Part shown: in pieces, positions 20,748-63,916 of the stretch | Position numbering within the stretch: the stretch's first letter is position 1 | Layout: each line of letters begins with the position of its first letter | Assembly (NCBI GenBank): GCA_963725865.1 | Contig: CAVSAC010000014.1 | Coordinates: 908,378 to 972,377 of the forward strand | Length of the DNA: 64,000 nucleotides | Source: Candidatus Eiseniibacteriota bacterium | GTDB taxonomy: Bacteria > Eisenbacteria > RBG-16-71-46 | Direction: 5' to 3' | Notes under the pieces: model-generated | Databases searched by the model: none | The model's input: the letters and a program-made list of their open reading frames with translations, nothing else | Told to the model about the DNA's origin: nothing | Program-made: the position numbers and the translations under genes

Positions 20748-20756
20748 GACAGCCTC

Positions 20757-29270: not shown

Positions 29271-29285
29271 GGCGCGGCCCGACGG

Positions 29286-31064: not shown

Positions 31065-31083
31065 CGTCGGCCGCCGTGCCGGG

Positions 31084-31782: not shown

Positions 31783-31963
31783 GCGCTCCTCCGATCGGCG
31801 GCGATGCTACGCGTGGCCTCGGTGAAGGGCAATCGTCGGGGTGTTTCCGGGTTGTGACATCCGCGAGCGGCAGGCTAGATTGCGGGCCGACCCTGCAGGA
31901 TCCCGCGTCCGCCCGCGCCTCAGCGGTCGCGGCCGCGACCCACGTTGTCCCGGGAAGGCTCCC

Positions 31964-33664
31964 ATGACCGAGACCCGCCAGGTGCCGCGTTGGCTCCCGC
32001 TGCTCGTCGTCGCGGTCCTGCTCGCGCTCGCGGCGCTCTCGCACGGCCCCGAGCAGGTGCTGCAGCTTGCGCGCACGGCGCCATGGCGGGGACACGGCTT
32101 CGGCCAGCTGCCCGCCGCCGCCGGGTGGTCGGTGTTTCGCATGGTCGCGTCGATGATGTTCTCCCTGGTGTTCGCGTGGGTCGTGGGCTACCGGGCCGCC
32201 CTGGATCCGCGCGCCGCGCGCGTGCTGTTGCCGCTCCTCGACGTGGGGCAGTCGGTGCCGGTGCTGGGGTTCTTCCCGGCCGCCATCTTCGTGTTCATCT
32301 CGCTGTTCGGCGGTGGCCGGCCCGCGCTCGAGATGGCCTCGATCTTCCTCATCTTCACCAGCCAGGCCTGGAACATGGCCTTCGCGGTCTACGAGGGGAT
32401 CTCCACGATCCCGCTCGAGACCCGCGCCGCCGTCGACAGCCTCGGCGTGCGCGGCGTGCTGCGCATGCGTTCCCTGCTGATGCCGGCGTGCGTGCCGCCG
32501 CTCCTGTTCAACACGATCCTCTCGTGGACCAACGGGTGGTACTTCCTGATCGCGTGCGAGATCATCGTCGCCGGCCGCGCCCAGTACGAACTGCCTGGGC
32601 TCGGCAGCACGCTCTCGCACGCGCTCGCGACCGGGGACATCCGGCTCGCGGTGGCGGCACTCGTCATCCTGCTGCTGATCGTGGTCGCGCTGGAGATGGT
32701 GGTGTGGCGGCCGTTGCGCGCGTGGGCCGCCCGGTTCCGTTACGAGGCCACGCGCGAGGATGCCGCCGAGGAGGCCGCGCCGGCGTGGGTGAGCGTCGGA
32801 TTGCCCCTGCTGGTGCGCCCGCTGCGCGTGCTGGGCCGCTGGGTGTGGCGCCGCGTGTCGGTGCCGCGCGTGGATGCCTGGCTGCCGGCCGCCGGGAAGT
32901 TCGCGCGTCGCGGGTGGCGCGTGCTGCGGTGGCCCGTCGGGCTCGCCGCGCTGGCGGCGACGATCCTGGCGCTGGTGGCGACCGCGCGCGCGCTCGCCCC
33001 ACCCTGGCCCCGGGAGGCCGCCAGCGTGCCGCTGGCGCTGCTGTTCTCGTTCCTGCGCATCAACGCGGCGTACGTGCTGGCGCTCGCGTGGATCCTCCCC
33101 GCGGTGTTGTGGGCGAGCGACCATCCGCGTGGCGCCCGTGCGCTCTCACTGGTTGCGCAGGTCGGGGCGTCGATTCCCGCCACGGCGTTCTTCCCGGTGC
33201 TGGTGGCGCTGTTCGTCCAGCACTTCGGCGGGATGGAGATGATCTCGGTGGCGCTGGCGCTGACGGGCATGCAGTGGTATCTGCTCTTCAATCTGCTCGC
33301 CGGGGTACAGCGCGTCCCCGGCGACCTGCGCGAGTCGCTGCGCGCGCTGGGGCTGTCGCGCTGGCAGATCCATCGCCGGCTGGTGCTGCCGGCCTGCATG
33401 CCGTCCCTCGTCACCGGCAGCGTGGTGGCGTGGGGCGGCACGTGGAACGCACTGATCCTGTCCGAGTACGTGGTGTACAAGGAGCACACGTACTCCGTGC
33501 TGGGCGTGGGCGCGCTGCTGAACCGCGCGACCTTCGTGACGGGGAGCCGCACGCTGCTGTTCCTGTCGCTGGCGGCGCTCGTCATCACCGTGGTGTCGTT
33601 CAACCACCTGGTGTGGCGGCGCCTGTACGAGCATGTGACCGCACGGTACCGCCTGGAGGGCTGA
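31964..33664 (+). CDS. ABC transporter permease with two fused transmembrane domains (NitT/TauT-family-like)
   Basis: It is 566 aa with about 12 predicted TM helices and two copies of the EAA-like loop (AAVDSLGVRGVLRMRSLLMPA and ESLRALGLSRWQIHRRLVLPA). It is divergent from phoB. Confidence 0.7.
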   Translation: MTETRQVPRWLPLLVVAVLLALAALSHGPEQVLQLARTAPWRGHGFGQLPAAAGWSVFRMVASMMFSLVFAWVVGYRAALDPRAARVLLPLLDVGQSVPVLGFFPAAIFVFISLFGGGRPALEMASIFLIFTSQAWNMAFAVYEGISTIPLETRAAVDSLGVRGVLRMRSLLMPACVPPLLFNTILSWTNGWYFLIACEIIVAGRAQYELPGLGSTLSHALATGDIRLAVAALVILLLIVVALEMVVWRPLRAWAARFRYEATREDAAEEAAPAWVSVGLPLLVRPLRVLGRWVWRRVSVPRVDAWLPAAGKFARRGWRVLRWPVGLAALAATILALVATARALAPPWPREAASVPLALLFSFLRINAAYVLALAWILPAVLWASDHPRGARALSLVAQVGASIPATAFFPVLVALFVQHFGGMEMISVALALTGMQWYLLFNLLAGVQRVPGDLRESLRALGLSRWQIHRRLVLPACMPSLVTGSVVAWGGTWNALILSEYVVYKEHTYSVLGVGALLNRATFVTGSRTLLFLSLAALVITVVSFNHLVWRRLYEHVTARYRLEG

Positions 33665-33667
33665 GCG

Positions 33668-34411
33668 TTGCTCGAGCTGCGACACGTCACCCGCACCTTC
33701 ACCGACCGGGGTCGCGAGATCCCGGCGGTCGAGGACATCAGCTTGCAGGTGCCGGACCGTGAGTTCCTGTGCATCGTCGGGCCCTCGGGGTGCGGCAAGT
33801 CCACGATGCTGCGCCTCATGATGGGGCTGCTCCCCCCGACGCGCGGCCAGGTGCTCTACGAGGGTGCCGCGCTCGCGGGCGTGAACCTGCGGGCCGCGAT
33901 GGTGTTCCAGTCGTTCGCGCTGCTGCCCTGGCTGACGGTGCAGGGCAATGTCGAGCTGGGGCTCAAGGCGCGCGAACTGCCCGAGGACGCGGTGCGCCGC
34001 CGGGCGGCCCACTACCTCGACAAGGTCGGCCTCGACGGATACGAAGAAGCCTACCCGCGCGAACTCTCCGGCGGGATGAAGCAGCGGGCGGGCCTCGCGC
34101 GCGCCCTCGCTGTGGAGCCGGAGCTGCTGTTCATGGACGAGCCGTTCGCCGGCCTCGACGCCCTCACCTCCGCCAACCTGCGCGAAGAGGTGCTCACCCT
34201 GTGGGCCGACCACGCGATGCCGGTGAACACGGTCGTGATGGTGACCCACATCATCGAGGAGGCCGTGCTGATGGCGGACCGCGTGGTCGTGCTCACCCCC
34301 CACCCGGGGCGCATCGCCGCCGACGTCCCGATCGCGCTCGAGCGCCCGCGCAACAAGCGCGACCCCGGTTTCGACCAGGTCGTGGACTCGATCTTCGAGA
34401 AGATCGTGTGA
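33668..34411 (+). CDS. ABC transporter ATP-binding protein (NitT/TauT-family-like)
   Basis: It has Walker [10 protein letters not shown], signature LSGGMKQR and Walker B LLFMDEP. The start is TTG, 3 nt after the permease stop. Confidence 0.85.
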
Positions 34412-36053: not shown

Positions 36054-36582
36054 GCCCCTCCCGGGGGCCTCCGACGGCCAGCCTAGCGCCAAATCAGGTC
36101 GCGGCCGCCGTGCACGCCCGAGCAGGGTGGTGCGAGATCCAATAAACGATTGTCATACAATGAATTGGGTAGCAGTCACCAAGCCCAGAATGAGGCTTGT
36201 ACGCCCCCTAGCCCGGTGCTAGCCTACCGCTCCCCCCACCAATGCCCCTCGCTTAGGGCGCATTCGATGGGCGGACCATGACCTATCAACCTCAATCATC
36301 AAAACGCTTTAGACCAGGCTTGCGGGTTCTTGCGCGAGGCCTGGATCGTGATTCGCTTCAGTCTGTTCGGCGATTTGTGGAAACGGTGTGGAAGAAGGGA
36401 GGCGCGACGCTGGACAAGCGGCTTTACCGCTTGGACTTATGCCAGCCCACATGAATGTTGATAAGTCGCCCATCAGATTTTCACACTCGTCTCCCCCACC
36501 TGGCCCCCGACCGCAGCCCAAGGGCACTTCGCGGTCCCGCCTTGTGTGGAAAAGTTGCGACCTTTCAGCAAGGACCGTTGAA
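36054..36582. promoter_or_regulatory. Candidate oriC / dnaA promoter region: AT-richer stretch with several DnaA-box-like 9-mers
   Basis: This is the least GC-rich 0.5 kb in the window (for example aataaacgattgtcatacaatgaattgg at 36141..36168). Matches to TGTGGATAA: TGTGGAAAC at 36376, TGTGGAAGA at 36386, TGTTGATAA at 36457 (8/9), TGTGGAAAA at 36546 (8/9). It lies immediately upstream of dnaA. Confidence 0.45.
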
Positions 36583-37965
36583 ATGGCCGTCCACCCCGTG
36601 CTGTCGGACGAGTCCATCCGTCTCTGGGAACAAGTCCTCCTGTCCATCCGCGACAGGCTCGGGAGCCCTCAGGCTTTCGAGACTTGGTTCAAGCCCATCG
36701 TGCCTCGTGAGATGAGCGCCGGATCGGTGGAGCTCGAAGTCCCCAATGCCTTCTTCGTGGACTGGATCCACGAACACCATCTACCGGCACTGCGCCAGTG
36801 CCTCACCGAAACGCTTGGCGCGACCCCTGCGATCCACTTCTCGTCGCGCGAGAGCGCGGCCGTCCTGGAGCCGCCCGCAACATCAGCGGCCCCCTCGACT
36901 CCAACCCCTGCGCAACGGCCGAATCGCGCCTGGCTCGAGAGCCAGCTCCACCCGCGGCTCACGTTCGACGGATTCGTGGTCGGCGGCAGCAACCGTTTCA
37001 CGCACGCCGCCTGTCTCGCGGTCGCGGGCGCTCCGGGGCAGGTGTACAACCCATTGTTCATCTTCGGAGGCTGCGGTCTCGGCAAGACCCACCTGCTTCA
37101 CGCGGTCGGTCACGCGGTGCGTCAGAAGCGTCCCGAGGCCCGCGTGTACTACGTGCCTGCGGAGCGATTCACGAACGAGATGATCTACGCGATCCAGCAC
37201 GCCCAGACGCTGGCGTTCCGGAACAAGTACCGCAACGTCGACGTTCTGCTGATCGACGACATTCAATTCCTCGCGGGAAAGGAGAGTACTCAGGAGGAGT
37301 TCTTCTATACCTTCAATGCGCTCCGCGACGCCCACAAGCAGGTCGTGGTCACGGCCGACAAGCCTCCGAAGGACATCCCGATGCTGGAGGAGCGGCTCAC
37401 GTCGCGGTTCAATCAGGGACTGGTTACGGACATCCAGCAGCCGGATCTCGAGACGCGCATCGCGATCCTCCGCAATCGGAGTGCGCAGGAGGGCGGTGGT
37501 GTTCACCTGCCCGACGACGTCCTGCTGCTGATTGCAGACCGCATCCGCAACAATATCCGTGACCTCGAGGGATGTCTCGTGAGGCTCATCGCGGTGGCGT
37601 CCCTGACGCATCGCGAGATCTCGACCGAGCTCGCCGAGGAAGTACTGCAGCATTACGTCAATCCCGAGCCCGACCATCTGACACCGGAACGCATCCTCAC
37701 CGCGGTCGCGGACCGCTTCGGGGTGCGCGTCGACGCGATGTGCGGGGCCCGTCGGACGCGAACGGTGGTGCTGCCGCGACAGGTCTCGATGTACCTCCTT
37801 CGACAGCTCACTGAGCTGTCCTTGGTGGAGATCGGTCGCGCGTTCGGTGGTCGCGATCACACGACCGTGATCTACGCCTGCGATCGGGTGGCCGATCTGA
37901 TCGCGCGCGACAACGCGTTCGCGGAGCGCATCAACGGGTTGATCTCCACGATCGCGTCGGGATGA
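36583..37965 (+). CDS. dnaA: Chromosomal replication initiator protein DnaA
   Basis: It has the AAA+ Walker A GGCGLGKTHLLHAVG, the sensor/box VII region, and the C-terminal DNA-binding domain RRTRTVVLPRQVSMYLLRQLTELSLVEIGRAFGGRDHTTVIYA. Confidence 0.95.
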   Translation: MAVHPVLSDESIRLWEQVLLSIRDRLGSPQAFETWFKPIVPREMSAGSVELEVPNAFFVDWIHEHHLPALRQCLTETLGATPAIHFSSRESAAVLEPPATSAAPSTPTPAQRPNRAWLESQLHPRLTFDGFVVGGSNRFTHAACLAVAGAPGQVYNPLFIFGGCGLGKTHLLHAVGHAVRQKRPEARVYYVPAERFTNEMIYAIQHAQTLAFRNKYRNVDVLLIDDIQFLAGKESTQEEFFYTFNALRDAHKQVVVTADKPPKDIPMLEERLTSRFNQGLVTDIQQPDLETRIAILRNRSAQEGGGVHLPDDVLLLIADRIRNNIRDLEGCLVRLIAVASLTHREISTELAEEVLQHYVNPEPDHLTPERILTAVADRFGVRVDAMCGARRTRTVVLPRQVSMYLLRQLTELSLVEIGRAFGGRDHTTVIYACDRVADLIARDNAFAERINGLISTIASG

Positions 37966-38327
37966 GTGGTGGAATCTCGGTGGAGAGTTGGGGAGGAATC
38001 GGGTGTTCGAGTGGCAGGTGTGACCATGTCGTCGAGAACCGCTCGCTTCTCCCCAGCTCGCTGTCTCGCCGCATCCCGTTGCTCGCAAACATGTTGCATG
38101 GCTGTCGCGGCGCTTCTCCACGAAGCTCACAGTGCCTACGATGACTAGCTTCTTTCTTATTACATCACAACAGATTAGAAGACCTATGAGCGGCCTCAAA
38201 TCACTTGCGCGAGTCGAGGGGCGCGCCTAATATGCCGGGCGATGCCGTACGTGCCCCCATCAGCACACATCAGGCCCCCGGAACCGTAAACGGGACTTCG
38301 ACTTCCCCCCAGGTAGGGAGTGATCAG
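37966..38327. promoter_or_regulatory. dnaA-dnaN intergenic region with an AT-rich block; possible second oriC half or DNA-unwinding element
   Basis: The 360-bp gap contains ctagcttctttcttattacatcacaacagattagaagacctatg (38146..38190) and a weak DnaA-box-like TTCTCCACG at about 38111. Confidence 0.3.
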
Positions 38328-39476
38328 ATGGAGCTGACCATCCAGCAGGGCGACCTGGCCTTCGGTGTGGCCCGCGCCCTGGGATCGGTTTCGACCAAGA
38401 GCCCTCTTCCGCTTCTGAGCTGCATCCTGCTCGAGGCCGAGAAGGGCGGGTTGCGGATCACCGGTACCGACCTCGATGTGACCACCTCGGTGGTGGTGCC
38501 GTGCACCGTCGCATCGCCGGGCAAGACGGCCATCTCGGCCCGCCACTTCAACGACGTCGTACGTAAGATCCCGAAGGGTGTGCTCGCGATCGCGATCGCA
38601 GGCCAGCAGTGCGAGGTGCGCTACGGAGATGGCAAGGGCTGGTCCAAGTTCCCGACCCAGGACCCCGCCGACTTCCCGCGCATTCCGGAACTGCGGGGTG
38701 AGGCGAAAGTCTCGCTGCCGGGTGACGTGCTCTCGCGCCTCGTCACGCGGAGTCTCTACGCGACGTCGTCCGAGGAGACCCGCCCTCAGCTGAACGGCGT
38801 GCTCGTCCATGGCACCGACAAGCAGGTCGCGTTCGTCGCGACCGACGGTCATCGGCTCTCGAAGGCGACGCGCAAGGGCGGGTTCGCGGGTCTCTCGAAG
38901 GAGGGCGTGATCGTTCCGGGGCGTGCGCTCCAGGCCGTCAGCCGGGTCGCCGAGGAAGCCACCAGCCCGGTCGAGTTCGAAGTCGCGGGATCCAAGAACC
39001 AGGCGGCATTCGCGGCCCAGGTCGGCGAGTATCGCGTCCAGATCCTGACGCGGCTGCTGGAGGGACCGTATCCGAACTACGAGCAGGTGATCCCGCGCGA
39101 CAACCCGAAGGAACTCAAGGTGCGGCGCGCCGACCTGATGGAGGCGGTCGACATCGTCTCCTCGCACGCGGACAACATCACGCGCCAGGTCCGGTTCTCG
39201 GTACGCGCCGGAAAGCTGGGGATCTCGTCGGCCACCGAGCTGGGGGCAGGCGAACATCTGATCGCGGCCGAGTACGCGGGCGACGATCTCGAGATCGGAT
39301 ACAACGCGACCTACGTCCTCGACATGCTGAAATCGGTTCCGACCGAGCACGTGATGTTCCGCCTCAAGACCGCCCTCGCAGCCGGGGTGGTCGAACCGGT
39401 CGGTGCGCTGCCGCAAGCCGACGAGGATCTGTTGTGTCTCATCATGCCGCTGCGACTCCCGGACGCGGCGGGCTGA
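38328..39476 (+). CDS. dnaN: DNA polymerase III beta sliding clamp
   Basis: It starts MELTIQQGDLAFGVARALGSV, which is the typical beta-clamp N-terminus, and has a three-domain length of 382 aa. A GGGAG RBS is present. Confidence 0.9.
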   Translation: MELTIQQGDLAFGVARALGSVSTKSPLPLLSCILLEAEKGGLRITGTDLDVTTSVVVPCTVASPGKTAISARHFNDVVRKIPKGVLAIAIAGQQCEVRYGDGKGWSKFPTQDPADFPRIPELRGEAKVSLPGDVLSRLVTRSLYATSSEETRPQLNGVLVHGTDKQVAFVATDGHRLSKATRKGGFAGLSKEGVIVPGRALQAVSRVAEEATSPVEFEVAGSKNQAAFAAQVGEYRVQILTRLLEGPYPNYEQVIPRDNPKELKVRRADLMEAVDIVSSHADNITRQVRFSVRAGKLGISSATELGAGEHLIAAEYAGDDLEIGYNATYVLDMLKSVPTEHVMFRLKTALAAGVVEPVGALPQADEDLLCLIMPLRLPDAAG

Positions 39477-39478
39477 GC

Positions 39479-41721
<2,243 letters not shown>

Positions 41722-41723
41722 CG

Positions 41724-42308
41724 ATGCCGATGCTTCGACGGATCCTGATCGTGGCGGCCGCGTTCGTCGTGGCGGCGGCGCCCGCGCACGCGATGCAACG
41801 CCCGGAGCTCCTGATGAGCGCCGGCGCGACCACGCTGGTGAACGGAGATCCCGGGGATGGCGGGGTGTCCCTGTCCATCAGCTCCATGTGGCCGGCCGAC
41901 CCGCCATTCACGTTCGGCCTGATGCTGTTCGCCGACGACTGTGGCACCGACCTCGGCCGCCTCTACGATCAGCACGATGGCGTCGATCTCGGCACGGTCG
42001 AGACCCGACATCGATTCGCCTATGGCGCCGCCTGGAGAGCCGACGCGGCATTGCCCGGTGTGGGACGCTGGGCGCCGTTCGCGAGCGCGACCTGGGGCGC
42101 GTATCGACTGCAGGACGATGCCCGCGGCGACGTGCTCGACGCCAAGACCTCGACCGGCTTCAGCATCGGGGCCGGCGTGCGCCGGCCGTTCCTCGGCAGC
42201 GGAGCGCTCGGGGTGTCGGCGCGCTGGCACGCGGTGGAACGCGGCCCGAGCACCGGCTGGCTGAGCGCGGGACTGGACTGGCAGTGGTATCTCGGCCGGC
42301 GCCCCTGA
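41724..42308 (+). CDS. Hypothetical secreted protein inserted between gyrB and gyrA
   Basis: The ATG is 3 nt after the gyrB stop. It has a signal peptide RRILIVAAAFVVAAAPAHA and a 194-aa Gly/Trp-rich beta-type composition. Confidence 0.5.
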   Translation: MPMLRRILIVAAAFVVAAAPAHAMQRPELLMSAGATTLVNGDPGDGGVSLSISSMWPADPPFTFGLMLFADDCGTDLGRLYDQHDGVDLGTVETRHRFAYGAAWRADAALPGVGRWAPFASATWGAYRLQDDARGDVLDAKTSTGFSIGAGVRRPFLGSGALGVSARWHAVERGPSTGWLSAGLDWQWYLGRRP

Positions 42309-42427
42309 GGCACGACAAGGCGCGCGGCGTTCGGCTCGGCTCCACGCGCGCGGACAGGAGGTCCGCGGCGCACGACCTCAACGCGAGCCGCGTCCGGCGA
42401 CGGACGCGGTGAGGCAGGACGGAAACG

Positions 42428-44959
42428 ATGGCACTCAACGATCGCTCGAAGGTCGTCGACACGAACATCGAAGAGGAGATGAAGACCTCGTACATCGACT
42501 ATTCGATGTCGGTCATCGTCTCTCGCGCCCTTCCCGATGTCCGCGACGGCCTCAAGCCGTCGCAGCGGCGCATCCTGGTCGCGATGAACGACCTCAACCT
42601 GGCGCCCGGCCGACCCTACCGCAAGTGCGCGAAGATCGCCGGCGACACGTCGGGCAACTACCACCCTCACGGTGAGCAGGTCGTCTATCCGACGCTCGTG
42701 CGGCTCGCGCAGGAATGGGTGATGCGCTATCCGCTCGTCGACGGCCAGGGCAACTTCGGCTCGATCGACGGCGACGCGCCCGCGGCCATGCGCTACACGG
42801 AGGCGCGGCTGACCCCGCTCGCGGTCGAGATGCTGAACGACCTCGAGAAGAACACCGTCGACTTCCGCCCGAACTACGACGAGACCCGCGAGGAGCCCAC
42901 CGTCCTTCCGGGCGTGGTGCCGAACCTGCTCGTCAACGGCTGCTCCGGCATCGCCGTGGGCATGGCGACCGAGGTCCCGCCGCACAACCTCGGAGAGATC
43001 TGCGACGCGATCGTGCACGTCATCGACCACCCGGAGTCCGAGCTCGTCGATCTGCTGAAGATCGTGAAGGGCCCCGACTTCCCGACCGGCGGGATCATCT
43101 ACGGCACGCAGGGCATTCGCGACTGCTACCTGACCGGTCGCGGCCTGATGAGGATGCGGGCGCGCGTGCAGGTGGAGGAGGGGCGCCAGGGACGCATGAG
43201 TCTCGTGGCGACCGAAATCCCTTTCCAGGTCAACAAGGCGGCGCTGCTGGAGCGCATCGCCGACATGGTGCGCGACGGCAAGATCACGGGCATCAGCGAC
43301 CTGCGCGACGAATCCGATCGCGAGGGCATGCGCATCGTGATCGAGCTCAAGAAGGACGCGAATCCGAAGGTCGTGCTCAACCAGTTGTTCGTGCACTCCC
43401 CGCTGCAGAGCACGTTCGGGGCGATCATGCTCGCGCTGGTCGACAACCGTCCGCAGGTGATGAACCTGCGCACGCTGATCGACCAGTACGTCGCGCATCG
43501 TCGCATCGTGGTCCGCCGCCGGACGGAATACGATCTCGCCGAGGCGGAGCGCCGGGCGCACATCCTCGAAGGACTCAAGATCGCCCTCGACCATCTCGAC
43601 GCGGTGATCGCCCTGATCCGTGCGTCGAAGGACGTCGAGTCCGCGCGCCAGGGCCTGATGTCGCAGTTCAAGCTCAGCGAGATCCAGGCGAACGCGATCC
43701 TCGAGATGCGGCTCCAGCGGCTCACCGCGCTGGAGCGTTCCAAGATCGAGGCCGAGTACCTCGAGGTCATCCAGCTCATCGAGCAGCTGCGGTCGATCCT
43801 CGCGAGCGAGCAGAAGATGCTTGCGATCATCCAGGACGAGGTGCGGCGCCTGAAGGAGCGGTTCGGCGACGAGCGGCGCACGCAGATCGTGACCGAAGAG
43901 GGCGAGATCGGCTACGAGGACACCATCGAGCAGAAGGACATGGTGATCACGATCTCGCACGCCGGCTACATCAAGCGCCAGGAGATCACCGCGTACCGCT
44001 CGCAGCGCCGCGGCGGAAAGGGAGTGATCGGGGCGCGGACCAAGGACGAGGACTACATCGAGCACCTGTTCGTCGCGAACACCCACGCCTACCTGCTGTT
44101 CCTCACCGACCGCGGGCGCTGCTACTGGCTCAAGGTCCACGAGGTCGAACAGGCGGGCCGGATGGCGCGAGGGCGCCCGCTCGTGAACCACCTCGAGGGC
44201 CTGAGTCGCGAGGAGCGCGTGCAGGCGGTCGTGGCGGTGAAGGAGTTCGACGAGCAGCACTTCCTCGTCTGTGCGACCCGCAAGGGGCTCATCAAGAAGA
44301 CGGTGCTGTCGGCCTACGGCAATCCGCGCAAGGGCGGCATCAACGCGGTGCTGCTCGAGGAGGGCGACGGCGTCATCGAGGCGATCCTCACCGATGGAAC
44401 GCAGGATCTCATCCTCGCGAAGAAGAAGGGCCTCGCGATCCGCTTCCACGAAAGCGAGGTGCGGGCCATGGGCCGCACCGCGTATGGCGTGAAGGCGGTC
44501 ACGCTCGACGACGACCAGGACGAGGTCGTCAGTATGGTGAGCGTCAAGCGCCAGGCGACGCTGCTGGCGGTCACCGAGAACGGCTACGGCAAGCGCAGCG
44601 AGATCTCGGACTACCGGGTCTCGCACCGCGGCGGCAAGGGGATCATCACCATCAAGACCACGGAGCGGAACGGCTACGTGGTCGCCGTCAAGGAAGTCGT
44701 GGACGGTGACGAGCTCATGATCGTGACCCGTTCCGGGCAGCTGATCCGCATGCCGGTGAAGGGCATCTCGGTGATGGGCCGGAACACGCAGGGCGTGCGC
44801 CTGGTGAACCTGCACGCCGAGGAAGGCCAGTTGCTCCCGGACACCGTCGCCGGGGTGACGCGCGTGGTGTCCGAGGAAGAGGACGACGCCGGTGGCGATG
44901 CCGGCGATGCCGGGAGCACCGGCGACACCGTTCCGGAAGGAGAGAGCACCGAGTCGTGA
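42428..44959 (+). CDS. gyrA: DNA gyrase subunit A
   Basis: It has [27 protein letters not shown], the active-site region [10 protein letters not shown], GyrA-box-like beta-pinwheel repeats, and an acidic C-terminal tail. Confidence 0.95.
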
Positions 44960-54565: not shown

Positions 54566-55072
54566 ATGATCCGACGCTGCATCGCTCCGCTGCTGGTACT
54601 CCTCGCCGCGACCCTTGCACCCGCCGGCGCACGCGCCGCGGGCGAACTCCGCTGGCGCGGATTCGACGCCGGGCTGCGCGAAGCCAGGAGCACCGGCCGA
54701 CCGGTGCTGGTGGACGTGGTCACGGACTGGTGCCGCTACTGCAAGATGATGGATCGCGACGTGTACTCGCGCGCCGACGTGCGCGAGTACCTGTCCCAGC
54801 GATTCATCCCGGTGAGGCTCGATGCCGAGGGGGCGCAGGTCGTGTCCTATGAAGGACGGAGCTTCACGGGCCGCACGCTGTCGCAGCGCTTCCGGGTAAA
54901 CGGCTATCCCACCACGATCTTCCTGAAGGCCGACGGCGGACACCTCGTAAACGTGCCCGGCTACCTGCCGGCGGATCAGTTCCTGGTGCTCATGCGCTAC
55001 GTCGCCGAGGGGGCGCTCGAGCGCGGCGAGGACTGGGAGGCGTACGCCCGCAAGGCGAGCGGGGCGCGCTGA
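54566..55072 (+). CDS. Periplasmic thioredoxin-fold protein (DUF255-like, CxxC)
   Basis: It has a signal peptide. VLVDVVTDWCRYCKMMD is the thioredoxin-like CxxC active site. The fold continues with GYPTTIFL. Confidence 0.7.
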   Translation: MIRRCIAPLLVLLAATLAPAGARAAGELRWRGFDAGLREARSTGRPVLVDVVTDWCRYCKMMDRDVYSRADVREYLSQRFIPVRLDAEGAQVVSYEGRSFTGRTLSQRFRVNGYPTTIFLKADGGHLVNVPGYLPADQFLVLMRYVAEGALERGEDWEAYARKASGAR

Positions 55073-55080
55073 GCCCCGCG

Positions 55081-55686
55081 ATGTCGCTGCTGACCGGTCA
55101 CGAGGTCGCGGTGGTCGACACCGAGACCACCGGCTTCTCGCCCGTGGATGGACACGTCCTGGTCGAGGTCGCGGTGGTCCGCGTGGTGGACGGCGCGATC
55201 CGCGAATCCGAGTCGTGGTCCTCGCTGATGCGGCCCGGCCGGCCCATCCCTCCCGACGCGACCGCGGTGCACGGGATCACCGACGCGATGGTGGCTGGGG
55301 CGCCGCCGCCGGCCGAAGTCGCGCGGCTCCTGCGCGAGGCCTGCGGGGCGCGGGTGCTCGCGTTCCACAACGCGCCGTTCGATCTGCCGTTCCTGGTGGC
55401 GCTGCTGAGCAGTGAGCGCCAGCCGCCCCTCACGGCCCCCGTCCTCGACACGCTGGGCCTCGCGCGCGGGCTCTACGGCTCCGGAGGCAACAGCCTCGGC
55501 GCCCTCGCCCGCCGTCTGCAGCTGCCGCCCGCGACCGCGCACCGTGCGCTCGGGGACGCGCTCACCACCGCGCACCTGCTGGTGCGGCTGGCCGCGGACT
55601 GGGCGAAGCGGGTGCCCTCGCTCGAGGAGTTGGCCGCCGCGAGCCAGGACCAGAATCGCTGGCGACCGACCGCGGCCGCGCGCTGA
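55081..55686 (+). CDS. DEDDh 3'-5' exonuclease (DNA polymerase III epsilon-like / DnaQ family)
   Basis: The Exo I-III motifs are VVDTETTG, FHNAPFD and HRALGDA. Confidence 0.75.
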   Translation: MSLLTGHEVAVVDTETTGFSPVDGHVLVEVAVVRVVDGAIRESESWSSLMRPGRPIPPDATAVHGITDAMVAGAPPPAEVARLLREACGARVLAFHNAPFDLPFLVALLSSERQPPLTAPVLDTLGLARGLYGSGGNSLGALARRLQLPPATAHRALGDALTTAHLLVRLAADWAKRVPSLEELAAASQDQNRWRPTAAAR

Positions 55687-55789
55687 CGCGCCGCGCCCCG
55701 GTCGATTGACACTCGACCGTGTGCTCCGGATGATGCACCGTCGACCTGCGACATCCCCCGCGTCGCCAGCGCCGATCCAGGAGGGCCCC

Positions 55790-56269
55790 ATGCCCGATCG
55801 CGTGAACCTCGAATTGGGCCAGCCGGCCCCGGACTTCCGATTGAAGGGACCCGGCGGCGCCTTCGTCACGCTCTCCGAGTATCGGGGCCAGAAGCACGTG
55901 GTGCTCGCGTTCTACCCCCTCGCGTTCTCCCCGGTCTGCGCGCATCAGCTTCCCACCATCCAGCGCGAGATGGGCGCGATCGAAGCGCTCGACGGGACCG
56001 TGCTCGGTATCAGCGTGGATAGCCACTACGCCAATCAGGCGTTCGCGGAGCGGCTGCGGCTCACGTTCCCGCTCCTCTCCGACTTCAATCGCGAGACCAG
56101 TGCCGCCTACGGCGTGCTGCTCGGCGAGCGGGGGATCAGCAATCGGGCCCTGTTCCTGATCGACAAGCAGGGACGCGTCGCTTACAAGGAGATCTCGGAG
56201 AACCCCGGGGACCTCGCGATGATCCCGAGCAATCCCCGGCTGCTCGCTGCGCTCGAGGCCCTTCAGTAG
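55790..56269 (+). CDS. Peroxiredoxin (AhpC/TSA-Bcp-like thiol peroxidase)
   Basis: It has a GGAGGG RBS. HVVLAFYPLAFSPVCAHQ is the peroxidatic Cys motif. Confidence 0.75.
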   Translation: MPDRVNLELGQPAPDFRLKGPGGAFVTLSEYRGQKHVVLAFYPLAFSPVCAHQLPTIQREMGAIEALDGTVLGISVDSHYANQAFAERLRLTFPLLSDFNRETSAAYGVLLGERGISNRALFLIDKQGRVAYKEISENPGDLAMIPSNPRLLAALEALQ

Positions 56270-56302
56270 CAGCGGCGCGGCCCGCCGCGCCACCGGGCGA
56301 CC

Positions 56303-57652
56303 ATGCCGAAGGATTCCGCCACCGTTCTGGTTGTTGGCCGCGAGAATGCGGCCACCCGCGAGACGATCGCGCGCCTGCGCGCACACGATTACGCTGCGAT
56401 ATGGGCGCGCGATGGCGAGAGCGCCCTCAATCTCCTCGATCGGCGCCGCGTCGATGCCCTGGTGGTCGAGGTGCGGGCCCCGCGCATCGACGGGCTCGCC
56501 GTGATGCAGCGGGCGCTCGCCCGCAACCCGGCGACGTGCACCGTGCTGATCGCGGCCGGCCCGCAGACCGAGGCGGCGATTGACGCGCTGCGACACGGAG
56601 CACACGACGTGCAGTCGCCGCCTCTGCACCTCGACCGGCTGATAGCCATGCTGGAGCGCGGCCTTGCGCAGCAGCGGCTCGGCGAGCGCCTCGACGCGAT
56701 GCAGGCGCGGCTCGATCAGCGTTTCGGGCTCGGGCGACTGGTCGCGCAATCGCGCGCCATGCGGCGGGTGATCGAGCAGGTGCGGCACACGGCTGCAACC
56801 CGAGCGACCGTGCTGATCGAGGGCGAGCCCGGCACCGGCAAAGGGTTGCTCGCCCAGGTGCTGCATCAGCACAGCCCGCGCAAGACCGGGCCCTTCGTCA
56901 TGGTGGACTGCGGTGCGGTGCCGGACGGGTTGATCGAGAGCGAGCTGTTCGGCGACGACTCGCTCGACGACGCATCGCGACGGGGCCGGTTCGAGCTGGC
57001 GGACGGGGGCACGCTGTTCCTCACCGATGTGGCGTCGATCCCGCTGTCGGCCCAGGTGCGCCTGCTGCGCGCGATCCAGGACCGCGGATTCGAGCGGGTC
57101 GGGGGCACGACGACCCGCCGCGCGGACGTGCGGCTGCTCGCCGCGAGCGAACGCGACCTCGCGGCGGAGGTCGCCGCGGGGCGGTTCCGCGACGATCTCG
57201 CGCGGCGCCTCGGAGTCGTGCGGCTCGTGCTCCCGCCCCTGCGCGAGCGCCGTGAGGACATCCCGGCGCTGGTCGAGCGCTTCATCCACGAAACGAACCG
57301 CGCCCATCGCCGGCGAGTCACCGGCATCACGCGCGGCGCTCTCGAGCGCCTGCTGGCGCACGCTTGGCCCGGTAACGTGCGCGAGCTGCGGGAAGCGGTG
57401 GAGCGGATGGTGGAGTCCACGCGCGGCCGGCGCGCGCTCGACCTCTCGGACCTGCCGTCGCCGCTGCGGCCGGACGTCCAGGGTGGTGAGCCGCTCGCGC
57501 TGGCGGTCGGCATGACGATCGACGAGGCCGAACGCCACCTGATCCTCGCGACACTGGAGCACGCCGGCGGAGACAAGGTTCGCGCCGCGCAGGTGCTGGG
57601 CATCGGCCTGCGTACGCTCTATCGGAAGCTCCAGCAGTACGCCATCCACTGA
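56303..57652 (+). CDS. NtrC-family AAA+ transcriptional regulator with a degenerate receiver domain and no GAFTGA motif
   Basis: The AAA+ core reads GEPGTGKG...ESELFG...GGTLFLTDV. The Arg finger is present, and the C-terminus is a Fis-type HTH (AAQVLGIGLRTLYRKLQQY). The GAFTGA loop is replaced by DDSLDDA. In the receiver domain ENA replaces the DDE acidic pocket and VVEVRAPRIDG stands where the phospho-acceptor should be, with no Asp. Confidence 0.8.
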   Translation: MPKDSATVLVVGRENAATRETIARLRAHDYAAIWARDGESALNLLDRRRVDALVVEVRAPRIDGLAVMQRALARNPATCTVLIAAGPQTEAAIDALRHGAHDVQSPPLHLDRLIAMLERGLAQQRLGERLDAMQARLDQRFGLGRLVAQSRAMRRVIEQVRHTAATRATVLIEGEPGTGKGLLAQVLHQHSPRKTGPFVMVDCGAVPDGLIESELFGDDSLDDASRRGRFELADGGTLFLTDVASIPLSAQVRLLRAIQDRGFERVGGTTTRRADVRLLAASERDLAAEVAAGRFRDDLARRLGVVRLVLPPLRERREDIPALVERFIHETNRAHRRRVTGITRGALERLLAHAWPGNVRELREAVERMVESTRGRRALDLSDLPSPLRPDVQGGEPLALAVGMTIDEAERHLILATLEHAGGDKVRAAQVLGIGLRTLYRKLQQYAIH

Positions 57653-57799
57653 CCCCGGACGCGGGGCGCCAGCCGCGGTTGGGCGGTGCCGGCCAGAATG
57701 GCCCGCATCCGCCCCGTACGGGGGGGCGGGAGCCCGGGCTAATCCCCGCGCGCCGGCCCGCCGATACCCGGGTCGGACCTGTTCCATGGAGAGGCGCGC

Positions 57800-58837
57800 A
57801 TGGGCGACATCGAACCGATCGAGCCGATCGAACCGTCGGACTCGACCGAATCGACCGTATCGAACGGAGAGCTCGAGACCGACGAGATGCGCGTGGCGGC
57901 CGAGCGCGCGCGTGCCGAGAGCACGGCCGCGGCGCGCCCGGACTGGCTGGTGGGTGCCGACGACGGTGTGGCGGCCGAGCACGAACGCGTGGCGCGCGAG
58001 GCGGTTGCCCCCACCGAATCGCCCACGCTCCGCCGCCCAGAAGCGCCGACTGACGACGCGCCGCGTCGCCTGGACACGGCGCCCCCGCGGGTGCTTCCCG
58101 GGTTGCCGCTGTCCACGAAATCCGCGCCGGCAGCCGAGAAGCGCGTCGCCTGGACCGCGGCGGCCAGCAGCCTGCCCACGCTGCGCGTGCTCAAGGGCGG
58201 CGTGCCCGAGTCCGCGGCGCCGCCCGACGCGCGGCTGGCGCCCGACGCGCGCCTGACGCCCGACGCGCGCCTGACGCCCGACGCGCGCCTGACGCCCCAG
58301 GTGCGCCTGGTCGAACCCGCGCGGGCCGCGGCCCCATTGCGCGTGATGCAGGTCGAGGAGGAAGACGAGCGCGCGTTCCCCGACAGCACCGGGCATTCCC
58401 CCGGCACGCCGGCAGGGACCGCCGTCCCCACCGTCACCGCGCGCCGCTCGGCTCCGCGCGAGGCCTGGTGGCTGATCGCCGTCGACACCCTGCGCTCCGA
58501 TCGGAGAGTGCAGTTGCTCGCCGCACTGATCGTGGTGCTCGCCACCGCGATCGCGTTCTGGCCGCACGCCGAGAAGACGATCTCGATCCATGAGATCCGT
58601 CGCAACCCACAGGCGTGGGACGGTCGCATGGTGCGCGTCAGCGGCCGCGTCGGCGAGGTCTTCCCGGTCGGGGGCGGCTACGCGTTCAATCTCCACCAAT
58701 CGCGCGACACGATGGTGGTGTTCACGCGCTCGCGCACCCCGCGCGCCCGCGAGCAGGTCACGGTCGCCGGCTCCATCAGCACTGGATGGCTCGATGGCGT
58801 ACCGCGCCAGGCGCTCTTCGAAGAAGTGACTCGCTAG
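57800..58837 (+). CDS. Membrane-anchored repeat protein: acidic N-terminus, PDARLT tandem repeats, one TM helix and a C-terminal OB-fold-like domain
   Basis: It contains IEPIEPIEP and PDARLAPDARLTPDARLTPDARLTP repeats, a TM helix WWLIAVDTL...LLAALIVVLATAIAFW, and a C-terminal domain reading VRVSGRVGEVFPVGGGYAFNL...VTVAGSIS. Confidence 0.45.
   Translation: MGDIEPIEPIEPSDSTESTVSNGELETDEMRVAAERARAESTAAARPDWLVGADDGVAAEHERVAREAVAPTESPTLRRPEAPTDDAPRRLDTAPPRVLPGLPLSTKSAPAAEKRVAWTAAASSLPTLRVLKGGVPESAAPPDARLAPDARLTPDARLTPDARLTPQVRLVEPARAAAPLRVMQVEEEDERAFPDSTGHSPGTPAGTAVPTVTARRSAPREAWWLIAVDTLRSDRRVQLLAALIVVLATAIAFWPHAEKTISIHEIRRNPQAWDGRMVRVSGRVGEVFPVGGGYAFNLHQSRDTMVVFTRSRTPRAREQVTVAGSISTGWLDGVPRQALFEEVTR
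58224..58295 (+). repeat. Perfect 18-bp tandem repeat (cccgacgcgcgcctgacg), 4 copies, in frame and encoding PDARLT
   Basis: The repeat is directly visible at 58224..58295. The first copy is degenerate and encodes LA rather than LT. Confidence 0.8.
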
Positions 58838-59228
58838 CGGCGCGCGTCCTCGCGTCGTGGCCAGACGGGCGCACTTCCCTGCGGAGCGCGCCCCTCGCCG
58901 CATGCGTCCCGGCGCTCGATGCTGGCGATGCCTCGACCCATCCGCCAGGCAACTCTTGCCATTCTGACAACCGCCCGGGCTTCTTTTGCCATTCTGGGAC
59001 ATCCTGCCAGAGTCACAATCATCTACTGACCAGCAGGTTACGCGGATGATCGCTGGCCGCGCCGGGCCGACCTGGAATTGCATTGCGGCTTCTCGTCCGC
59101 GTGGCCTATGTTCCGCGTCGCGCTCGGGGTGAGCGGCTCCCGCCGCACGATCAACGCGCCCAACGCCTCAGTCGACACATCATCCTTCAAACCGCGGCCT
59201 CGCAGGCCGTGCATCGAGGAGGAGCCAC

Positions 59229-61224
<1,996 letters not shown>

Positions 61225-61251
61225 TCCAGATCGACATACATCGCACACGAC

Positions 61252-61284
61252 GGCCCCGGGGGCGACCCCGGGGCCGTTCGCGTT
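61252..61284 (+). terminator. Candidate intrinsic terminator after groEL
   Basis: Stem ggccccgggg / ccccggggcc with loop gcga, followed by gttcgcgtt. Confidence 0.45.
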
Positions 61285-61441
61285 GAGGGGGGGGACTGCG
61301 GTAGTGCCACCGGGGGCCCGTTCGATCGCGCGGGGGCGAGGTTCGCGCATGTCCGGTCGCGTGCGGCTGCGGCGCCAATACCACGGCACGCATGTCACGG
61401 CCAGCCCGGCGGACCCCCGGGTGGCACTCCGGAGGACGACC

Positions 61442-63916
61442 ATGTCGCATCGACTCTTCGCTCGCCGTCCCGCGCTCCGCGCCCCGCGGAACGCCTCCCG
61501 GCCCCATCGCCCCGCGTCGCGCGCGTGGCGGACGGCCACGCTCCTCGCCACGCTCCTCCTGCCGTCCGCCGCGGCGGCCGAGACGGTCGAGTCCCAGCTC
61601 TGGGTCACGAACGGCCGGGTGAACACGAGCACGACTCTCGGCGGCACGCTGTACGTCGGCGGGCAATTCACGGTGGTCGGCCCCCAGACCGGCTCCGGCG
61701 TCGCGCTCGATGCCGCGACCGGCGCGTTGCTTCCGGGCACGCCGCCGGCGAACGGCGCCGTCAGCGCCGTGATCCCCGATGGCGCAGGCGGCTGGTTCAT
61801 CGGCGGCCAGTTCGACTCGGTGGGCAACCTCCCGCGCGCGGGTCTGGCGCACATCCGCGCCGATCTGTCCGTCGATCCCACGTGGAATCCCGGCGCCAAC
61901 GGCGCGGTCGCCGCGCTCGCGCTCGGGAACGGCGTGCTGTACGCCGGGGGCACGTTCACGACCGTCGGGGGAGCGTCGCACGTGGGCCTCGCCGCGATCC
62001 TCGCGGCCACCGGCAACCTCAAGCCGGGCTGGACCGGGACCGCCAACAGCAACGTGAACTGCCTGGCGTACTCCAACGGCATCGTCTACGTCGGCGGGCT
62101 CTTCAACTTCGCCGGCGGCCAGGCCCGCAGCTACGTCGCCGCGCTGGACAGCGCGACCGGAGCCGCCACGCCGTGGAATCCCGGCCCCAACAACCAGGTG
62201 CTGACGATCGTCGTGAAGGACTCCACGGTCTACCTGGGGGGCACGTTCACGAGTGTGGGGGCAACCACCCGCAATCGCGCCGCGGCGCTGCAGGCCACGA
62301 CCGCCGCCTTGCTCGCGTGGGACCCGGCGGCGACCGGATCGGTCAACGCGCTGCTCCTGGATGGAGCCGTGATCTACGCGGGCGGAGGCTTCTTCACCAT
62401 CGGCGGGCAGCTGCGCAGTCAGCTCGCGGCGCTCGACGCCACCACCGGACTCGCGACGCCGTGGATTGCCTCCGCCAGTCCCAACGGAGGCGTGGCCGCG
62501 CTGGCGACGGCCGGGGACACGCTCTATGTCGGCGGATCGTTCACGTCCTTCGGCACCACATCGCGCTTCTACCTCGCCGCGCTGAGCAAGCCCTCGGGCG
62601 CGATCGCGGCGTGGAACCCGGTGGCCGGCGCGTCCGTGAGCGCGCTGGCCGCCGCGGGCGGTACGGTGTTCGCCGGCGGCTCCTTCGTGTGCGCGGGCGG
62701 GGCGGCGCGCGGCAACCTGGCGGCGTTCGACCTCGCCACCGGCCGCGCCACCGCGTGGAATCCCGGAACGAACAGCAGCGTCAACGCCCTGGTCGCGATC
62801 AGCGGCACCATGTACGCGGGAGGGACGTTCCTCTCGGTGGGCAAGCCGAGCACGACGCGGCAGTACCTCGCTGCGTTCGACACCGCGACCGGCGCCGTGC
62901 TGCCCTGGAATCCCAACGGGGGGGGCACCGTGAACGCGCTCGTCACCGATGGAACCACTCTGTGGGCGGGCGGCAACTTCCTCAGCATCGGCGGCACCCT
63001 GCGCAACCGGCTGGCCGCGATCGACGTCGCGACCGGCGCGCTCCAATCCTGGAACCCCAACGTCAGTGGCGTCGTGAACGCGCTCGCCTACGCGAACGGC
63101 GTGATCTACGTGGGCGGAAACTTCGCGACCATCGGAGGCCTCGCGCGCCCGTGGATGGGCGCAGTCGACGCGGTCACGGCGGTACCGACCGCGTTCCTTC
63201 CCGCGCCGAACTCCGTCGTCCAGACCATCCTCCCGTCCGGGACGACGCTGTACGTCGGTGGATCGTTCACCTCGATCGGCGGCCAGCCACGGACCTACCT
63301 GGCCCAACTCGACGCGACGTCTGGCACCGCCAACGGTTGGACCACGACGCTCGACAATGGCGTGAACGCGCTGGCGCTCGCGGGCGCGACGCTGTACGTC
63401 GGCGGCGGATTCACCACGATCGGCGGGGTCGCGCGCAGCCGCCTCGCCTCGGTCGACGCGAACACGGCGATCACGTCGTCGTGGAACCCCAACGTCGCCG
63501 GACTGAGCGTGGTCACGGTAGCCGTCGGGTCGGGCCGCGTGATCGCCGGAGGCGACTTCTTCACCGTCAGCGCAGTTGCGCGCCGGAACCTCGCGAGCGT
63601 GCTTGATCCCGCGCTGCTCGCCGCGGTGCCCGTGCCGCGCGGCGCGGCGGTCGGACTGCAGCTCGAAGCCCCCGCTCCGAATCCGGCGCACGAACGCGGC
63701 GCGCTGCGCTTCACGACGGCGCGCGAGGGCCGCGTTCAGCTGGGGATCCTGGATGCCGCGGGACGGCGCGTGCGCACGCTGATCGACGGCACGCTGCTGG
63801 GATCCGGGCGCCACGTCGTGCCCTTTGCGCGCGGAGGCCTGCCGCCGGGCGTCTATCTGGTCGACCTGCGCCAGGGCGCGGCGCGCGCCACCCAGCGGCT
63901 GGTGTTCGTCGACTGA
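61442..63916 (+). CDS. Secreted protein with about 15 tandem 47-aa beta-propeller-type repeats and a C-terminal T9SS type-A / FlgD-Ig-like sorting domain
   Basis: It has a signal peptide TLLATLLLPSAAAAE. The repeat consensus is G.V.ALA..G.TLYVGG.FT.VGG..R..LAA.D..TGA...WNP. The C-terminus reads PAPNPAHERGALRFTTAREGRVQLGILDAAGRRVRTL...GVYLVDLRQG...QRLVFVD. Confidence 0.7.
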   Translation: MSHRLFARRPALRAPRNASRPHRPASRAWRTATLLATLLLPSAAAAETVESQLWVTNGRVNTSTTLGGTLYVGGQFTVVGPQTGSGVALDAATGALLPGTPPANGAVSAVIPDGAGGWFIGGQFDSVGNLPRAGLAHIRADLSVDPTWNPGANGAVAALALGNGVLYAGGTFTTVGGASHVGLAAILAATGNLKPGWTGTANSNVNCLAYSNGIVYVGGLFNFAGGQARSYVAALDSATGAATPWNPGPNNQVLTIVVKDSTVYLGGTFTSVGATTRNRAAALQATTAALLAWDPAATGSVNALLLDGAVIYAGGGFFTIGGQLRSQLAALDATTGLATPWIASASPNGGVAALATAGDTLYVGGSFTSFGTTSRFYLAALSKPSGAIAAWNPVAGASVSALAAAGGTVFAGGSFVCAGGAARGNLAAFDLATGRATAWNPGTNSSVNALVAISGTMYAGGTFLSVGKPSTTRQYLAAFDTATGAVLPWNPNGGGTVNALVTDGTTLWAGGNFLSIGGTLRNRLAAIDVATGALQSWNPNVSGVVNALAYANGVIYVGGNFATIGGLARPWMGAVDAVTAVPTAFLPAPNSVVQTILPSGTTLYVGGSFTSIGGQPRTYLAQLDATSGTANGWTTTLDNGVNALALAGATLYVGGGFTTIGGVARSRLASVDANTAITSSWNPNVAGLSVVTVAVGSGRVIAGGDFFTVSAVARRNLASVLDPALLAAVPVPRGAAVGLQLEAPAPNPAHERGALRFTTAREGRVQLGILDAAGRRVRTLIDGTLLGSGRHVVPFARGGLPPGVYLVDLRQGAARATQRLVFVD

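Follow-up and report, generated by a model that had tools for sequence, protein, structure and literature searches.

An atypical NtrC-class regulator with an aspartate-less receiver, from a family in which the sigma-54 contact loop appears to have been lost repeatedly

Introduction

Bacterial enhancer-binding protein (bEBP) homologues with a defective GAFTGA motif form an established class. A survey in 2011 found about 110 of them among about 5,000, and the class includes TyrR, DhaR, HupR, VpsR and YplP (PMC3162934); HsfA, PhhR and NtrX are further atypical bEBPs (PMC6158489). Such homologues are routinely annotated as "sigma-54-dependent" (PMC3162934). Here, we analysed a gene of this kind in a 64-kb stretch of DNA with a GC content of 72% (contig CAVSAC010000014.1, Candidatus Eiseniibacteriota), hereafter referred to as the window, in whose numbering all coordinates are given unless stated otherwise. 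The gene lies at 56303..57652 on the + strand and encodes a protein of 449 amino acids, hereafter referred to as the regulator. An earlier interpretation of the same DNA, made from the letters alone and referred to as the sequence-only reading, had described it as an NtrC-family AAA+ protein lacking GAFTGA and a phosphorylatable receiver Asp.

Overall organization of the regulator

The regulator can be described as composed of a receiver (REC), an AAA+ domain, a lid and, at the C terminus, a helix-turn-helix (HTH). Pfam assigns Response_reg to residues 8-117 (E = 1.3e-10, 41.9 bits against a cutoff of 30.2), Sigma54_activat (PF00158) to residues 147-308 (E = 2.8e-51, 174 bits against a cutoff of 20.2), AAA_lid_14 to residues 314-393 and HTH_8 (PF02954) to residues 406-446 (E = 8.4e-15). 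The α/β domain of the AAA+ module, residues 147-308 (56741..57226, +), has matches in the Protein Data Bank up to E 4e-72, and the Fis-type HTH_8 DNA-binding domain (57518..57640, +) is the best conserved part of the protein. The gene is further supported by its collinearity over the full length with orthologues that are 55-64% identical, and by a GC content of 0.88 at third codon positions; the GC content at the codon positions of this open reading frame (ORF) matches that of the real genes of the window. The length of an ORF is in itself no evidence of coding here, since a spurious antisense ORF of 1173 amino acids, as expected at 72% GC, covers the regulator (55562-59083, -).

An exact look-up of the regulator in a collection of 15 billion proteins found no copy. 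Its nearest relatives, mostly of 453 amino acids and of metagenomic origin, have sequence identities of 55-64% over 97-100% of the length. Among the NCBIfam equivalogs compared, the regulator falls below every curated cutoff: 339 bits against 714 for AtoC, 306 against 559 for NtrC, 305 against 760 for ZraR, 288 against 600 for NtrX and 182 against 576 for TyrR. The scores place it in the NtrC class, outside all of the named families tested.

The L1 loop and the ATPase site

The L1 loop was compared, by HMMER alignment, with the structures of NtrC1 (4l4u/1ny5), ZraR (1ojl) and NifA (9qq6). In these alignments, two gaps of two residues each fall inside the L1 loop of the regulator, and its segment ESELFG-DDSLDDASRR-GRFE aligns to ESELFGHEKGAFTGA....GRFE of the three proteins. 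The remnant loop, DDSLDDASRR (56954..56983, +), has no GAFTGA and is four residues shorter than that of the canonical orthologues. At the DNA level, comparison with the orthologous genes shows an in-frame deletion of 12 nucleotides accompanied by substitutions. The replacement of GAFTGA by DDSLDDA, as the sequence-only reading had it, is therefore borne out by the four-residue gap. No string of the type G[AS][FY][TS]G occurs in the whole protein, nor in the other two frames of the L1 DNA, and these two scans exclude a hidden, shifted or frame-shifted GAFTGA, for which that reading had left room.

Several elements of the AAA+ domain are intact. Walker A, GEPGTGKG (56822..56845, +), has the GxxGxGK pattern found in nearly all sampled family members. 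The arginine-finger segment FRDDLARRL (57185..57211, +) conforms to the FRxDLxxRL pattern of almost all members, with R296 and R302 invariant in alignment A1, and sensor II is preserved in the alignment as GNVREL (57371..57388, +). Other elements have diverged. Walker B, LFLDEI in canonical proteins, reads LFLTDV (57014..57031, +) through the replacements D241T and E242D, the canonical stretch GGTLFLDEI having become GGTLFLTDV. An x-D pattern at this site is also seen in two relatives, P0062 (VD) and L032 (AD). Sensor I, canonically AATNRD, reads AASERD (57140..57157, +) through T282S and N283E, the latter also being found in P0062. Residue 202, which we take to be the equivalent of PspF N64, the glutamate-switch Asn, is an Asp (56906..56908, +), with MVDCGA in place of the WVNCGA of the family.

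Walker A and Walker B had both been credited to this protein; the former stands, while the latter does not, since it has TD in place of DE. The ATPase is predicted to be broken as well, a point that had been missed, with Walker B, the sensor-I Asn and the switch Asn all replaced. Of the features of a sigma-54 activator, the regulator thus keeps the Sigma54_activat domain, Walker A, the arginine fingers and sensor II, and lacks GAFTGA, the hhhhDE of Walker B, the sensor-I Asn and the switch Asn. Because the L1 deletion comes together with the loss of hydrolysis residues, coupling to sigma-54 has very likely been lost.

The receiver domain

Residues 7-120 (56321..56662, +) form an aspartate-less receiver, or pseudo-receiver, identified by the Response_reg match, by the (βα)5 fold of an AlphaFold2 (AF2) model and by alignment to NtrC and CheY. 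The model, built on an alignment of 45 sequences, has a predicted local distance difference test score (pLDDT) of 87.6. Its receiver has a complete (βα)5 fold with block pLDDT values of about 80-93, and Glu56 is located at the C-terminal end of strand β3 (residues 52-56). A structure prediction of this domain was one of the checks that the sequence-only reading had proposed, and the outcome agrees with its view of a pseudo-receiver.

In the alignment to NtrC and CheY, the segment LVVEVRAPRIDG carries Glu56 (56468..56470, +) at the phospho-acceptor position, which is D54 in NtrC and D57 in CheY. The acidic pocket, D10-D11-D12 in NtrC, reads G12-R13-E14 (56336..56344, +); its first column is Asp in 108 of the 121 aligned family sequences on which all family counts are based, and Gly in the regulator. 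The receiver Thr, NtrC T82, corresponds to Ala84. Pro106 (56618..56620, +) occupies the position of the receiver Lys, NtrC K104, which is at least 95% conserved in the canonical members. Both losses that had been read from the letters, that of the acidic pocket and that of the phosphorylation-site Asp, are thus seen in the alignment. Of the features of a phosphorylatable receiver only the fold is present; the acceptor Asp, the acidic pair, the Thr/Ser and the Lys are all missing. The domain therefore falls within the definition of an aspartate-less receiver, that is, a receiver fold with a residue other than Asp at the acceptor position.

The acceptor Glu is real, but it is not a peculiarity of this gene. 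It is found in 113 of the 121 sequences, canonical sigma-54-type members included, and the motif that follows strand β1 in the family is D-R-E, not D-D. From these two observations, the Glu pseudo-receiver is a trait of the family, canonical members included. Two Cys residues are also nearly invariant in the family receiver, C52 at the start of β3 (111/121) and C79 at the start of β4 (119/121); the corresponding codons in the window are 56456-56458 and 56537-56539, and the regulator has Ala52. As the genes of the family have thioredoxin and peroxiredoxin genes for neighbours, the Cys pair could point to a pseudo-receiver that senses redox state.

The receiver is followed by a long helix, α5/linker, that spans residues 110-141 (56630..56725, +) in the DSSP assignment of the AF2 model and resembles the coiled-coil linker of NtrC1 and DctD, with matches to inactive NtrC1 (1ny5) and NtrC4 (3dzd). 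The best full-length structural matches of the model are NtrX (5m7n/o/p, E = 1e-37), and then inactive NtrC1 and NtrC4.

No histidine kinase gene was found within 8-10 kb of the regulator in the window or in the orthologous loci L001-L004 and L032, a range that still allows for a distant kinase. The only kinase in the window (29289-31133) pairs with an OmpR-type regulator. The pseudo-receiver that had been proposed from the letters is thus supported by the intact modelled fold, by Glu56 at the end of β3 and by the lack of a kinase gene nearby. Control of the regulator by partner binding is pure speculation, for which the conserved membrane protein encoded downstream is the sole candidate.

The orthologue family and the repeated loss of GAFTGA

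A scan of the genome contigs with the regulator as query returned only paralogues from other phyla, with identities of 31-44%, and peptide patterns were too specific to the query. Three of the family sequences are labelled 'Candidatus Eisenbacteria' (P0033, P0358 and P0365), and conflicting labels occur once each, Limnocylindria (P0106) and Sulfotelmatobacter (P0305). The family is probably specific to Eisenbacteria. Positional orthology, similarity over the full length and the acceptor Glu mark the regulator as a member of this lineage-specific family of Glu-receiver bEBPs. Most of the nearest representative clusters at 50% identity also lack GAFTGA, and ordinary Asp-containing NtrC-like proteins are found further out.

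Fully canonical members, with HERGAFTGA, DE in Walker B and TN in sensor I, make up 46 of the 121 sequences. A strict GAFTGA is missing from 72, and 65 of these 72 also lack the Phe-Thr core. The whole family has conserved the HTH as well as Walker A, FRxDLxxRL and GNVREL. The hydrolysis residues behave differently: where GAFTGA is present, DE is found in Walker B of all members (49/49) and the sensor-I Asn in 46/49, while without GAFTGA these values are 33/72 and 12/72, respectively. The contrast indicates that the hydrolysis residues decay only after the contact with sigma-54 is gone.

Losses were counted on a neighbour-joining tree made without the motif columns, and as this was the only kind of tree used, the counts are approximate. 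Fitch parsimony gives at least 17 changes in the state of GAFTGA, and if loss is taken as irreversible, gross loss of the L1 motif falls into 23 separate groups. The lesions are also of different types, with deletions of 3-6 residues, insertions of 4-9 residues and replacements of the same length, and these molecular differences lend independent support to many separate losses. The L1 motif would thus have been grossly lost on approximately 20 separate occasions.

These data bear on whether the regulator could still be a sigma-54 activator, working through a non-canonical, acidic L1 loop, which we regard as very improbable. The Sigma54_activat score is strong, the canonical orthologues imply sigma-54 in at least some members of the lineage, and Caulobacter NtrC mutants without GAFTGA were reported in 2025 to be able to influence sigma-54 genes (PMC12421884). 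However, activation requires the central Phe-Thr of GAFTGA (PMC3162934 and references therein), and here the whole motif is deleted, with Walker B, sensor I and the switch Asn lost besides. The order of decay across the family also argues against it, as does the promoter search, in which neither the 64-kb window nor the orthologous loci yielded a -24/-12 promoter above chance.

For the family as a whole, which probably extends across Eisenbacteria, a core function that is independent of both sigma-54 and ATP hydrolysis, such as operator binding in the ahpC-groESL stress neighbourhood, or losses that track a repeated loss of rpoN in the phylum, can be put forward only tentatively, at less than even odds. 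If true, the family would be a natural replicated series leading from a sigma-54 activator to an ordinary transcription factor.

Gene neighbourhood

Six loci share the order metallophosphoesterase, DsbH-like thioredoxin, RNase T-type exonuclease, AhpC/TSA, regulator, membrane protein, groES and groEL. Loci whose orthologue keeps GAFTGA do not differ in this respect from those whose orthologue lacks it, and being independent of the state of the motif, the order makes the regulator a positional orthologue. The AhpC/TSA peroxiredoxin gene (55790..56269, +; Pfam AhpC-TSA, 2.5e-34) adjoins the regulator in all orthologous loci. Its stop codon lies 33 nucleotides from the start of the regulator, and the two genes are probably co-transcribed. 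Upstream of both, a motif scan found a candidate sigma-70-type promoter, TTGACA-17-GATGAT (55706..55734, +), which is the sole match in 55000-59400, with 10 of 12 positions matching and 0.2 such matches expected. In the same place, L001 and L002 have TTGACA-N17-AATAAT.

The gene downstream of the regulator (57800..58837, +) lies between it and groES in all loci. It encodes a protein of 345 amino acids with one hydrophobic, probably transmembrane, segment and a conserved C-terminal domain, and had no match in Pfam. Over the loci this protein has 300-345 amino acids; it is restricted to the lineage, with 107 homologues that carry Eisenbacteria labels. Its N-terminal region has the conserved motifs PDWL, PVLRRP and AWTAAASSVPTLRV (alignment A2), and the copy in the window contains a fourfold PDARLT/A peptide repeat. 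The protein is a candidate target or partner of the regulator.

The groES-groEL genes (59229..61224, +; Cpn10/Cpn60) occupy the same position in every orthologous locus that reaches that far. Their long leader contains a conserved palindrome-like element, (G/T)TGCCATTnnGGCAA, of which the window has two tandem, diverged copies (58957-58971 and 58987-59002), and which is also found at 10608 in L002, 10550 in L003 and 10551 in L004. In L002 and L003 it lies 3' of a sigma-70-like promoter with TTGACA-N17. The element does not resemble the consensus of the CIRCE operator; it may be an RNA element, or an operator for the heat-shock response that is specific to the lineage. As an operator of the regulator it was rejected: it is present whatever the state of GAFTGA and occurs nowhere else in the loci, and no link could be demonstrated.

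No rpoN, no RpoN box and no second bEBP was found in the 64-kb window, and negatives over a stretch of this length reveal little of the genome as a whole. The window has no match to an RNA family of Rfam, and a literature search on sigma-54 in Eisenbacteria returned nothing. The genes dnaA, dnaN, gyrB and gyrA lie in a row at 36388-44959 (+), and the GC content falls to 0.63-0.67 over 36-44 kb. This segment is the replication-origin region of the chromosome, which puts the regulator about 18 kb downstream of dnaA, in an origin-proximal core region.

Elsewhere in the window, a PhoR-like kinase (HAMP-PAS-HisKA-HATPase) and the OmpR-type regulator stand by genes for a phosphate-type ABC transporter and binding protein and for a homologue of phosphate-selective porins (29289-31806, -; 31826-34411, +; 19893-20756, -). 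The pair makes up an ordinary two-component system with no relation to the present findings. Three large, probably secreted proteins are encoded at 13242-15833 (+), 27203-29401 (-) and 61193-63916 (+). Two of them have Kelch/β-propeller or DUF5122 repeats, and all three have C-terminal domains of the FlgD_ig type or similar, the FlgD_ig match of the second (27203-29401) being below the Pfam cutoff. Such a trio may be in keeping with the tentative assignment to Eisenbacteria.

A functional or a decaying protein

We interpret the regulator as a degenerate but still-functional protein that descends from a sigma-54-dependent bEBP and is now an atypical bEBP, that is, a DNA-binding regulator that is independent of sigma-54 and of phosphorylation and does not hydrolyse ATP, and we give this interpretation a probability of roughly 0.6. 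Such a protein would bind DNA through its Fis-type HTH and would probably be a dimer held by the receiver and the coiled-coil linker, as in the architecture of NtrC1, NtrC4 and NtrX. A nucleotide may be bound, not hydrolysed, with a possible allosteric use. The protein would not remodel the sigma-54 holoenzyme, and could repress or activate sigma-70 promoters, possibly in the neighbouring redox and chaperone cluster. Its level would be set by the expression of the operon or by some ligand or partner, and not by a kinase.

Several points weigh against this interpretation. At conserved columns the regulator is the second most divergent of the 121 sequences, with 27 mismatches in 211, which indicates relaxed constraint. 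An intact ORF and a ratio of nonsynonymous to synonymous substitution rates (dN/dS) below 1 are only moderate evidence of function, because a GC content of 72% keeps long ORFs by chance and codon bias compresses dS. No binding site of the regulator was identified, and the only hint of regulation through sigma-70 is that the local promoters look sigma-70-like.

The same divergence could be read as the mark of a functionless relic, an early pseudogene whose ORF survives only because stop codons are rare at 72% GC. In such a relic one would expect what is seen here, independent lesions in the receiver, L1, Walker B, sensor I and the switch Asn, in a family that loses these motifs very often, together with a dN/dS slightly above that of the other orthologues. 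By the NG86 method, dN/dS is 0.39-0.56 for pairs that include the regulator and 0.33-0.42 among other orthologues, values that give weak support only, with dS of 0.4-0.9 and a strong GC bias at third codon positions. The relic is nevertheless unlikely. The gene is collinear with its orthologues over the full length and has no frameshift, and its sole L1 indel is in frame. The HTH, the lid, Walker A, the arginine fingers and sensor II are selectively kept, and most substitutions at conserved sites are conservative. Divergence is unevenly spread over the protein: at conserved columns, identity to the canonical consensus reaches 88% for the HTH and 80% for the lid, against 75% for the AAA+ core, 70% for the receiver and 54% for the linker.

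The lesions are also found in relatives. P0062, which is 60% identical to the regulator, has 16 of the 48 derived residues of the latter in common, among them C52A, N202D, E242D and N283E, and its L1 loop is short too. L032, a closer relative on a contig of 1.23 Mb, shows Pro where the acceptor residue would be, an L1 that is short and lacks GAFTGA, LVLADV as Walker B and ATA in sensor I. Lesions common to relatives that are only 60% identical indicate that the degenerate form has been kept over a long divergence, and whole degenerate clades, such as the 16-member P0044 clade, persist in conserved synteny. We favour long-term maintenance of a protein that is degenerate in sequence and probably functional. 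In the L032 assembly (ENA ERZ25039554 contig_28175, 8000-13400), frameshifts interrupt the regulator as well as ahpC and groEL. As groEL is normally an essential gene, they are probably errors of the assembly and not real pseudogene lesions, and its gene calls are to be used with care.

Alternatively, a maintained protein might not regulate promoters itself and instead modulate other proteins, whether as a subunit without hydrolysis that poisons or tunes the rings of other bEBPs or as a scaffold to which the downstream membrane protein binds. The regulator keeps the elements of the oligomer interface (arginine fingers, sensor II and lid) and Walker A while catalysis is lost, and its gene is constantly paired with that of the lineage-specific membrane protein. 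We consider such a modulator quite unlikely: the HTH, which is the most conserved domain of the regulator and of every degenerate member, speaks for DNA binding, and no second bEBP gene was found in the 64-kb window.

Comparison with known systems

With its defective GAFTGA, the regulator appears to fit the class of atypical bEBPs (PMC3162934, PMC6158489), and we compared the DNA-binding regulator proposed above with the members of this class. VpsR from Vibrio cholerae has the same REC-AAA+-HTH organization, also lacks GAFTGA and also has a replaced Walker B (ND in VpsR, TD in the regulator); it drives sigma-70 RNA polymerase with no requirement for ATP or its hydrolysis (PMC6158489). VpsR was among the structural matches (7v2b), with 26% identity in the structural alignment. 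However, VpsR has kept its receiver Asp, which it uses in phosphate sensing (bioRxiv 10.1101/2023.06.06.543975), and it is driven by c-di-GMP. The regulator would have originated independently of VpsR, its own orthologues being canonical.

NtrX differs from the regulator in that its Asp can be phosphorylated, and NtrY is its cognate kinase. Like the regulator, NtrX of Brucella and Caulobacter has a shortened L1 without GAFTGA (bioRxiv 10.1101/2023.06.06.543975), and it is reported as a repressor (PMC6158489). The regulator is not an NtrX, as its 288 bits are far from the NCBIfam cutoff of 600.

NtrC from Rhodobacter capsulatus and from Caulobacter have the REC-AAA+-HTH organization and L1 deletions that remove GAFTGA. 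They are NtrB-partnered nitrogen regulators that act at sigma-70 promoters and require Asp phosphorylation; the Rhodobacter protein requires ATP binding, and the Caulobacter protein is predicted to bind and hydrolyse ATP (bioRxiv 10.1101/2023.06.06.543975; PMC12421884). In contrast, the regulator lacks both the acceptor Asp and a catalytic Walker B, and has no kinase partner close by. The sequence-only reading had proposed action independent of sigma-54 as in Rhodobacter NtrC or HupR. Its first half agrees with the L1 deletion and the missing hydrolysis residues, while the regulator is not a relative of these two proteins: with 46 canonical members among 121, the loss in the regulator is independent of those in Rhodobacter NtrC and HupR. 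Given the degenerate Walker B, a model based on the ATP-dependent, phosphorylated Rhodobacter NtrC does not fit, and VpsR and NtrX are closer analogues.

A heat-shock gene is under the control of HsfA, and the regulator has groESL in its neighbourhood. HupR, TyrR, PhhR, DhaR, YplP and HsfA are GAFTGA-defective homologues for which sigma-70 is known or presumed (PMC3162934, PMC6158489). TyrR, PhhR and DhaR differ from the regulator in having N-terminal domains that are not receivers, and the combination of a Glu pseudo-receiver with a dead ATPase, as predicted here, has been reported for none of the six. FleQ/FlrA-type bEBPs have a receiver-like N-terminal domain that is not phosphorylated, as would be the case here, and FleQ also works at sigma-70 promoters (PMC10723142). 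The AAA+ domain of FleQ is a close structural match (5exp, TM 0.93); however, FleQ retains both GAFTGA and its activity as an ATPase, and its control lies with FleN and c-di-GMP.

In aspartate-less receivers, Glu is the commonest replacement of the phospho-Asp (26%; PMC4395418), and in NtrC a D54E substitution acts as a phosphomimic (Klose et al. 1993, cited in PMC4395418). The best-characterised of these receivers in PMC4395418, ChxR and RitR, are not bEBPs, whereas here a Glu receiver is fixed in a whole bEBP family. In the regulator, this receiver has also lost the pocket Asp and the Lys. By analogy, the best reading is that the regulator functionally resembles VpsR or NtrX without belonging to the family of either, is of independent origin, and comes from a family whose canonical members are ordinary sigma-54 activators in all but the Glu receiver.

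Significance

The gene adds an atypical bEBP with a pseudo-receiver to a known class. The regulator would be mis-annotated as sigma-54-dependent in the same way as other members of that class, and its presence should not be read as evidence of a sigma-54 regulon. Its fixed place, with peroxiredoxin, thioredoxin and groESL genes around it, points to a regulon related to stress in this uncultured phylum. The result at the level of the family, a repeated and ordered degeneration within a syntenic group of orthologues, is more interesting than the single gene. The family offers many independent natural trials in which the contact with sigma-54 is removed and it can be seen which parts of an AAA+ activator stay under selection. 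The catalytic residues go, and the P-loop, the arginine fingers, the lid and the HTH stay. This pattern bears on the origin of atypical bEBPs such as VpsR, NtrX and HupR.

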